Below are positions 23,615-26,199 of a stretch of 64,000 bases of DNA, one piece after another. The stretch's first letter is position 1. Each line of letters begins with the position of its first letter. The stretch is from assembly GCA_965198115.1 (NCBI GenBank), contig OZ240241.1:1952001-2016000 (forward strand), read 5' to 3'. The notes beneath the pieces are model-generated. The model worked only from the letters and a program-made list of their open reading frames with translations. It was not told the DNA's origin and did no database searches. Source of the DNA: Candidatus Latescibacterota bacterium. Its GTDB lineage: Bacteria > Latescibacterota > UBA2968. The position numbers and the translations under genes were made by a program.

Positions 23615-26199
23615 ATGGTTCAAACCAAACGTCGTCTCCAGATCGCGACCTCGCTCGCTGTGGCTCTTCTGATCCTGGCCGTCGGGGTGGCCAGTGCGCT
23701 CACGGCAACGGGTCGTCTTCGTACGATGCTCGAACGTCAGATCGCCGAAGACAGTCACGTCATTGGCGAAAACCTGAAGATCATCATCCGTCAGGCCACC
23801 CGGGAGCTGGACCAAAGGGACCAGGCTTTCGATAAGGTTCAGGCCGTGTTGGAGAGCGTGCGGGTCGAAGGCTGGCGAGGGTTCGCGTGTGTGGTCGACA
23901 AGGACGGGCGCGTCGTAGCCCACCCGAACCCTGCCATGCGGGGAACCCGAGCCAGACTCGAGGAATACGCGGCCACGACGCTGTCACGGACGCCGGAGCG
24001 GGTCGATCTGCTGACCACGGATCCGGAGTCGACCACGGGCATCTTCCGGTCATCCGCCGACATCATCGCCATTCAGTGGCTACCACGGTTCATGACCTAT
24101 CTGTGTGTCCACCAGCCACACGGCGAGATCACGCGCAGGACGGACCGGATGCTCGCCGTCCTCGGGCAAGTCGGGGCCGTCTTCGTGATCATCGCTTCCG
24201 CCGGTAGCTGGTTCTTCGTCGGCTGGCTCGTGGATCGCTATGAGAGCCACGTCGCCCGGTCCGAAGCACAGAACCGTGCTCTCGTCGAAAGCAGTGATCC
24301 GATCATCGTCGCCGACCTCGACGGCCGCATCCTCACCCTCAATCCCGATGCGAGACGCCTCCTCGATATCGTGCCGGAAACAGATCCTACCGAAACACGA
24401 AGTCTGTGGGTCGACGACGATCGAGCGATGTTCGAACAGCTCGTGACTCAATCCGCCAACGGGGGGATCGTGGCCCACGACGGTCTTTCGATCCGCACAG
24501 TATCGGGGCGCACCGTGCCTGTCGCCGTCCGAGTTCGTCGCATCGCCTATGGCGCCGACACGGCCGTATACATACTTCTGCGGGACATCACCGACAGCCG
24601 GCGCGCTCAGGAAGAGATGCAGGAAGCCAACCGTGTCCTGCGCGAGCTGGACCGAATGAAGACCGACTTCCTGAACACGGTCTCCCACGAACTTCGCACA
24701 CCCCTGACATCGATCAAGTGGTCTGCGGAGTCGCTGGCTTCCTTAACCAAGGGTGACGACGAGAAGATCGACCGTCTCCTGACCATCATACGTGTGACGC
24801 CTTGCGATAATTCTCCGCCCAGCTTAAGCTATTCGCAGAATAGGCAGAATCGTTTCAATACGGTTAACAGTGGAGACCGTTCCCTAATGAGTTGAGGGTC
24901 ACCTAAGATCTGGCGGCCATGCGACATAGTGCCATAGGAGTACTTACAAGGCGCAACTGCCAAAAGCGGTTGTCGGACCTACGCCTGATGTCCCTTTCTT
25001 TACGCGAACGCGTTTGGCACATTCCGGGGGATCGGGACGCGAAACGCTCTCGACCTCCGACGGGTCCACGACCGGCAGCACCGCCAGGGAAACGGCCGAT
25101 TTTCTACCCCGCTTCGCCATTTTCGGGAAGCACCTTCAAAGCCGCCTTGTAGACAGACGCAAGCTCTTGTTTTTGAACTGGTTTAAGTGTTTCCGACACC
25201 TGAAAAACCCCCCTTTCGTCGACAACGGCCGCGATGCGCCCTCCGGAACGAAAATTAGGACGGATTAGTAAAAGAAACGGTCCACTACCGGTGTCCAAAA
25301 GAGAGCTGCTCGTTTCCACCCCCCCTACCCCCCTGGTGCGGGCCTCGGGCCAGCGACGCGCCCAGGGCCAACACCGCGCACCCCCTATGCCCGCTGGGAC
25401 TTGGCCTGGCCACGTCTTGAGCCTAATCGGTCGAAACGCGCTATTTTCGCGGTTCGAGAGCCTACTTCTCGCGCGTGTGGGAAAATGAAAAGGGCGCGGT
25501 CTACATCGGGACGCCCAGAGAGTTCATCCTCCCTTATCTCCGGTCGTCAGTTCTTGGTGCGTGAGAATGCGAATAGCGTAATCTGGGCGGGAATTTATCG
25601 TAAGCCGTAACATCATACGGAACGACAATCAGCGGCTGACGACGTTGATCGAGCAGTTGCTCAGCTTCTCCAGGATCGAAGCGGGTCAACTCGAACCGCG
25701 ATTCGGCGAGGTCGACCTGTCCGCTCTGATCGTCGACGCAGCCTCCGATATGGCCCCCCTCGCCCAGCAGAAAGGGGTGGCTCTGAGCCACCGCCTACCC
25801 GCAGAACGCGTCGTTGTCGAGGCCGACCGCGACCAGATTCGCCAGGTCATCGACAACCTGCTCGGGAATGGGGTCAAATACACGCCCACGGGGGGGTCGG
25901 TGTCGATCGCGCTATCCGGGGGTGATCCGGCCGAACTCGAGGTCACAGATACGGGTATCGGCATTCCCGAGACCGATCAGGAACGCGTGTTCGAGAAATT
26001 CTACCGTGTCGAGCAACACGAAGTGGAAGCCGAAAGTGGCACGGGCCTCGGTCTGGCCATCGTCGAGCGAATCGTTCACGCGCACGGGGGTCGGGTGGAG
26101 CTCGAAAGTCAGCCAGGGAGCGGCAGTTGCTTCAGGATCAGCCTCTCACGGTCGCGCCACAAGAGGCTGGAGAAATCGCGATCGGGGTCGATACAGTAA
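23615..26199 (+). pseudogene. Membrane PAS sensor histidine kinase interrupted by 820-bp insertion (restored 585 aa)
   Basis: TM, Cache-like, TM, PAS and H-box (VSHELRTPLTSI) in 23615-24792; continues in frame at 25620 (NDNQRLTTLIEQLL) into HATPase (NLLGNGVKYT, DTGIGI, GTGLGL). Confidence 0.92.
24793..25612. mobile_element. Non-autonomous TGT...ACA transposable element (820 bp, no transposase)
   Basis: 45-bp terminal inverted repeats with 37/45 identity (24793-24837, 25568-25612); 7-bp target duplication TCATACG (24786-24792, 25613-25619); removal restores the kinase ORF. Confidence 0.92.

Follow-up and report, generated by a model that had tools for sequence, protein, structure and literature searches.

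The window, by which we mean the whole 64,000-nt stretch of DNA that was analysed, contains a sensor histidine kinase gene that is interrupted by a non-coding element of 820 bp. The following features were identified at this locus:

23615..24792, plus strand: 5' part of the interrupted sensor histidine kinase gene (Cache, PAS, truncated HisKA)
24786..24792, plus strand: left copy of the 7-bp target duplication TCATACG
24793..25612, plus strand: non-coding element of 820 bp with TGT...ACA ends, of which the genome has 18 two-ended copies
24793..24837, plus strand: left end, 45-nt inverted repeat, with CGATAA at element positions 13-18, in the register found in related transposable prophages
25155..25338, plus strand: central module (element positions about 363-546), of which diverged versions (72-85%) without ends occur elsewhere in the genome and in other samples
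25568..25612, minus strand: right end, 45-nt inverted repeat, with CGATAA in the same register
25613..25619, plus strand: right copy of the 7-bp target duplication TCATACG
25620..26199, plus strand: 3' part of the interrupted kinase gene (rest of HisKA, HATPase_c)

The inverted arms of the element are 45 nt long and 82% identical (37/45). A preliminary description of this DNA had reported an element of about 820 bp with such ends, a perfect TCATACG duplication, no credible open reading frame inside and a kinase that is restored by excision, and all of these points were confirmed. At this insertion site alone, the flanks are also compatible with a 9-bp repeat and a right end that is shorter; the TGT...ACA ends and the duplication of exactly 7 bp were assigned because the other copies fix both. 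The 5' frame of the kinase now runs into the element and stops at 24895, and its HisKA domain is cut off, with model positions 1-43 of 66 present. In-silico removal of the element together with one duplication yields a 585-aa kinase frame with no internal stops and the domain order Cache-PAS-HisKA-HATPase. The gene was matched in 8 of 30 relatives (E 1e-30). In six relatives it forms one unbroken frame with a gap-free alignment across the insertion site, while a seventh, from the same genus, has no insert at this site but carries a gene broken by stops elsewhere. The interior of the element holds five open reading frames of 69-84 aa, none of which (0/5) matches PHROGs at E 0.1. Contigs assembled from the short reads of run X1, which may be the source sample, enter the element by 29 letters on either side, just below the 31-letter threshold for counting a bridge. 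No empty-site joint was found at this site in any of four short-read runs (4/4), in three of which the flanks were barely covered.

A genome-wide search for further copies and a tabulation of their duplication lengths had both been proposed in the preliminary description. In the 8.43-Mb genome (G000), 19 left and 19 right ends were found at high identity, together with one shortened left end, and these make up 18 two-ended copies. Seventeen of them are 751-823 bp long and one is 3,598 bp; the latter was considered as the autonomous parent and rejected, as it is an ordinary copy enlarged by IS256-family insertions. The TG...CA termini are fixed in 18/18 two-ended copies. Exact 7-bp duplications flank 12 of the 18, and another copy matches at 6 of 7 positions; three have no duplication, two of these adjoining other IS sequence, and two copies share one outer duplication. 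No duplication stops at 5 or 6 bp. The 13 exact 7-bp targets, the shared outer one included, are all different, with a symmetric bias of the form N-S-W-N-W-S-N, in which positions 3 and 5 are A/T in 22/26 cases (p 6e-6) and positions 2 and 6 are G/C in 22/26 (p 0.005). Of 14 insertions that could be read, at least 6 interrupt host reading frames that are long and plausible; others lie in IS256 sequence.

Pairwise identity among the copies ranges from 89 to 100% (mean 95%), the nearest sibling of the window copy being 97.9% identical. The proposal that the insertion is recent therefore stands in part: at the window site, the perfect duplication and the two open gene halves point to a fairly recent event, but the family as a whole is not very young. 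Interior indels among the copies are of all lengths. In the alignment of the 18 copies, the mid-element differences form common blocks in mixed combinations and the first 250 bp are almost invariant; the block pattern suggests recombination or gene conversion between copies. A two-ended variant of the element is present in short-read run X4, a sample from another study. Element DNA was found in none of 60 relatives, and searches of PLSDB plasmids and INPHARED phages gave no match. A metagenome scan with an 18-nt degenerate end pattern returned 79 loci, all at chance level (at most 31/45 over the full end, no transposase).

A candidate source of transposition activity was found beside one of the copies. 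A DUF3102 gene begins about 100 bp away from the left end of the copy at G000:C1:1436674, and a gene for a 460-aa rve transposase follows it. Both are transcribed away from the adjacent left end and thus lie in its flank, not inside the element. The chance of such proximity between element and transposase is about 0.001, and one short-read contig spans both genes and reaches 29 letters into the element end. The transposase matches PHROG 310 (E 4e-27) and keeps invariant D154, D240 and E276, which in our reading are the predicted catalytic triad. It stops about 78 aa early, its homologues being about 538 aa long, and it is the only full-length gene of its type in G000, with two 3' fragments elsewhere. 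No B gene or virion genes were found in G000 by tblastn, and the candidate trans-acting source in this genome is one shortened transposase gene and two fragments. The predicted structure has a pLDDT of 75. In a fold search, its best matches were CAST TnsB and IS21 IstA; MuA was absent among the listed matches, and the fold therefore places the transposase no more narrowly than in the Mu/Tn7/IS21 group.

The closest transposases (P0001-P0008) are 44-60% identical to the remnant. In the genome and viral scans, homologues occur in Mu-like prophages, and all close homologues that could be read at length (in G108, G169, G444, G168, G170 and G171) sit among phage-type genes, the setting in G092 being ambiguous. 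Among 60 relatives, one weak match to the transposase was obtained, and phylum-wide it was detected in 7 of 167 other own-phylum genomes (E 1e-10), with 1 further in a set of 400 and 2 further in a set of 85. Matches of the clade to cultured phages were found in 3 of 50,697 records, the best having 24-30% identity over about half the length.

The remnant groups with the transposase of a prophage in G108, a genome of the same class (support 100/98). This prophage encodes a repressor, a DUF3102-like protein, the transposase, a transposition ATPase, terminase, portal, protease and tape measure, with the transposase gene lying between the DUF3102-like and ATPase genes; identity to the remnant is 31% for the DUF3102-like protein and 39% for the transposase. 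Its ends are TGTTGTTACTCA-CGATAATT and TATTGCCGCTTG-CGATAATT, the second of which was fixed by two copies whose flanks diverge there. The G108 prophage is about 40.8 kb long and is present twice, once truncated, breaking the assembly (C1:1-33336, the end of C1 and both ends of C2). It has one TA end and one TG end, and its transposase and repressor genes are central, with the late genes in the opposite direction. The G108 flanks showed no pairing at any duplication length, and a generic search for TG..CA ends plus a duplication around the transposase returned noise. A blast match at G108:C1:32710 was rejected as a prophage end, as it lies inside a gene. The prophage in G169 is intact (40,029 bp; G169:C219:22409-62437), has the ends TGTTGCCGGGCG-CGAAAATT and TGTGAGGCAGTG-CGATAAC and is flanked by a 6-bp duplication; its transposase is 32% identical to the remnant, and it is the sole related prophage with a readable scar. 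By eye, it looks to be inserted in a ComEC-like gene. For the G444 prophage, the second end and the scar were not found.

The element ends are TGTGACGCCTTG-CGATAATT and TGTTACGGCTTA-CGATAAAT, and the related transposable prophages of about 40 kb end in the same TGT-N9-CGATAA register. A 20-nt matrix built from the two element ends ranked the true G108 ends 1 and 4 of 141,770 positions and the true G169 ends 2 and 5 of 147,778. With a 45-nt element matrix, the G108 ends ranked 1 and 3 and those of G169 dropped to 763 and 1483, indicating that the G169 likeness is confined to about 20 nt. In the reciprocal comparison, a matrix from four prophage ends gave element ends as the top 25 of 16,852,072 positions in G000, and 38 element ends fell within the top 43. 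Because two of these four prophage ends had first been spotted via the motif itself, the comparison was repeated with fewer ends. No position outscored the element left end with three prophage ends, and 18 positions outscored either element end when only the two prophage ends located by a duplication or by diverging flanks went into the matrix. In a blind test, the top hit of the element-only matrix in 100 kb of G444 lay 60 bp beyond the last tail-side prophage gene. No clear end motif was seen in 13 loci (two in G168, and those in G170, G171, G071, G079, G051, G092, L133-L135, G591 and G606), several of which are fragments or belong to a distant clade, and some of which may miss the junction. 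On these sequence comparisons, the element ends appear homologous to the ends of transposable phages, mainly over the first 20 nt, and CGATAA is likely to be the outer transposase-binding site.

The interior of the element is not traceable to phage DNA, because no intact parent phage was found: searches against phage DNA gave no significant blastn or tblastx match in a comparison set that contained no close enough parent, and a comparison of the element with five prophage-bearing genomes returned chance matches. No promoter or terminator consensus was found. Versions of the central module that lack the ends and are diverged (72-87%) lie at G000:C1:8396846-8397141 and 8403224-8403558, and both run on into a common, different sequence; several variants occur in other samples. 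The module has a stretch that we take to resemble an IHF site. It is possible that the central module is a retained transposition enhancer, or that it marks a sister family.

Two copies, at G000:C1:1426120 and 1436674, form a composite. They are the only identical pair among 153, lie in direct orientation with unmatched inner flanks, and are together bracketed by one outer 7-bp duplication, TCTGTAG, inside an IS256 gene. The intervening 9.8 kb contains an inverted left-end fragment, an RNA-polymerase-like gene of host type and its neighbouring ECF sigma gene, the transposase remnant and pieces of IS. The element-DNA-element structure, a single case, is what a cointegrate would leave, namely the product expected when a circular donor is fused to a target by replicative transposition. 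A composite of this kind could also result from homologous recombination of a circle with an existing copy, or from smoothing during assembly. Mu-promoted cointegrates and replicon fusions are described in PMC10052514 and PMC8705779, respectively.

The RNA-polymerase-like gene of the composite (L003:4406-7615; G000:C1:1427408-1430614, minus strand) encodes a 1,069-aa protein with RpoB-type (Rpb2_3, Rpb2_6) and RpoC-type (Rpb1_2) parts in one chain, the Rpb1_2 part having an NADFDGD-like motif. The ECF sigma gene lies beside it at L003:7582-8187. A second copy of the protein is encoded at C1:3368600 (42%), and matches were found in 13 of 30 relatives. From its domains, the protein looks like a minimal single-chain RNA-polymerase-like enzyme present in addition to the normal rpoB, which lies in the window.

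Because its tips match the ends of Mu-like phages, we consider it quite probable that the element is a natural mini-Mu-type unit, which is gene-less, carries the ends of a Mu/B3-type transposable phage and is moved in trans. Against this weigh the 6-bp scar in G169, the failure to find an intact parent phage, the position of the remnant genes outside the element, the short reach of the likeness at the G169 ends, the 13 loci without a clear end motif, the two prophage ends first spotted via the motif, and a fold search that does not single out MuA. The preliminary view of a non-autonomous DDE-type element that was mobilised in trans and knocked out a sensor kinase was judged right. Its argument that a 7-bp duplication points to IS21/IS481 over Mu was not supported, since the resident IS21, IS481-like and IS3 elements have other ends and the Mu-like prophages share those of the element. 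As to the mechanism, a transposable prophage of the remnant's clade would have lost nearly everything between its two ends, and the resulting short end-to-end unit would have been copied around the chromosome by the transposase of a helper phage acting in trans. The transposase would bind the CGATAA sites, nick the 3' CA ends and attack the target with a 7-base stagger. Transposition would be replicative (Shapiro type) and could thereby give rise to the element-DNA-element cointegrate. One copy would have landed in the early region of the helper, and later deletions and IS traffic would have left just the DUF3102 gene and the shortened transposase gene as the helper decayed. With a decayed helper, the copies may no longer be able to move unless a related phage enters the genome.

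The duplication length sets the element apart from known transposable phages. In PMC8705779, the duplication is given as 5 bp for Mu and as 6 bp for B3 and for 97 Leptospira prophages, and PMC13626063 likewise gives 5 to 6 bp for transposable phages. A mini-Mu-type derivative would thus be expected to make a duplication of 5 or 6 bp, whereas 7 bp was found here; the element is mini-Mu-like in its working but departs from this rule, and we therefore stop short of classing it as an ordinary mini-Mu. That the remnant-type transposase makes the 7-bp duplication is inferred, because the sole readable relative, the G169 prophage, has 6 bp. Like Mu, B3 and the Leptospira prophages (PMC8705779), the element has TG...CA ends, and its related prophages of about 40 kb carry a transposase and an ATPase; one relative has a 6-bp scar, as in B3 and the Leptospira prophages, and a TA end, known from Leptospira, is seen in one relative. 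Unlike them, it makes a 7-bp duplication and has no phage genes, and the transposase clade is without a close cultured phage. Another parallel is offered by mini-Mu and mini-D3112, which were engineered from transposable phages by internal deletion (PMC8705779). These constructs, as described there and in PMC10052514, also keep phage-type ends, lack the lethal and virion genes, insert randomly into genes and give a cointegrate structure with two direct copies. The element differs in being natural, gene-less and 750-823 bp long, in its 7-bp duplication and in having both ends as one 45-nt inverted repeat. In the literature searched, from which a 2023 survey in ISME J on transposable phages was missing, neither a natural mini-Mu nor a transposable phage with a 7-bp duplication was found.

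On balance, we lean towards a broader reading, in which an uncultured B3/Mu-like phage clade in a little-studied phylum has a transposase with a 7-base stagger, beyond the 5/6-bp rule, and in which a replicatively spreading, MITE-like parasite has arisen from the ends of such phages and knocks out host genes and moves host DNA as cointegrates, with the central module possibly acting as an enhancer. Transposable phages are located in genomes by their 5- or 6-bp scar (PMC8705779; PMC13626063), and a 7-bp lineage would be missed. If the broader reading is true, scars of 5, 6 and 7 bp would form a natural series for asking what determines the stagger of the target cuts made by a DDE transposase. 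A class of MITE-like repeats in bacteria, which annotation would treat as orphan ends of IS, would also have a phage origin, and long after the loss of the phage such relics could still rearrange host DNA and disrupt genes for signalling and metabolism. A unit of 800 bp with random insertion may, moreover, be a basis for genetic tools, of which the phylum has none.

The parent might instead have been a virion-less transposon of the same lineage, consisting of DUF3102 and transposase genes with or without the ATPase, perhaps the 11.3-kb composite itself with its two 794-bp modules as ends. The lack of a virion or B gene match in G000 agrees with such a parent, as does the position of the transposase within a unit that has a 7-bp duplication and the right outer ends, and the closest homologues lie on short contigs. 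However, the composite was found once and is filled with host-type genes and pieces of other IS, its transposase is shortened relative to its homologues, and the close homologues readable at length are all found amid phage-type genes. We regard a virion-less parent as improbable.

We also compared the element with the IS of the same genome. TGT...ACA ends and variable duplication lengths are typical of the IS21-, IS481- and IS1202-like families, and MITEs of IS21/IS481-type IS resemble the element in being non-coding and multi-copy, with TGT...ACA inverted repeats and movement in trans. It could accordingly be an ordinary MITE of a lost IS of one of these families, its phage likeness and its adjacency to the transposase being coincidental. 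In favour of this, the 45-nt inverted repeat is single and resembles that of an IS, G000 contains both IS21 and IS481-like elements, and the fold of the remnant transposase is as near IstA as anything. However, at 13 IS21/rve loci (8 istB and 5 other; the IS21 seeds being 8 of 22 istB-family matches, plus one DnaC-like), the best 20-mer match to the element ends was 12-15/20 and did not lie at the termini. On the phage-end matrix, the IS481-like terminus scored -3.0 and the IS3-like terminus -5.9, as against 20.4 and 17.1 for the element ends, and the reciprocal ranks and the blind G444 hit would be hard to obtain by chance. In contrast to such MITEs, the element has ends that match prophages and not resident IS, is larger than most and bears the signature of a replicative cointegrate. 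It does not look like an IS21/IS481 derivative, because no such IS in the genome shares its ends, and coincidental phage likeness in an ordinary MITE seems to us decidedly improbable. For the repeat to be an artefact of assembly or a structured non-coding RNA is very improbable indeed: its folding z-score of -3.5 (against 20 shuffles) owes something to the pairing of its end-to-end inverted repeats, no Rfam family was found in it above chance, its short-read depth is about ten times or more that of the flanks, and the 13 different duplications and the gene interruptions show insertion.

The genome is heavily loaded with IS elements, including dozens of IS256-family copies as well as IS3, IS21, IS1595, ISAzo13 and others, and IS256 sequence surrounds or cuts several of the element's copies. 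At 8.4 Mb, the G000 assembly compares with 5.6 Mb for a same-genus assembly. A 1.38-kb rve (IS481-like) element is present in 17 copies that are more than 99.7% identical (L035-L048; e.g., G000:C1:2302124-2303504), and it begins with TCCAGCG.. at its left end, not TGT, and has target repeats of about 14-15 bp.
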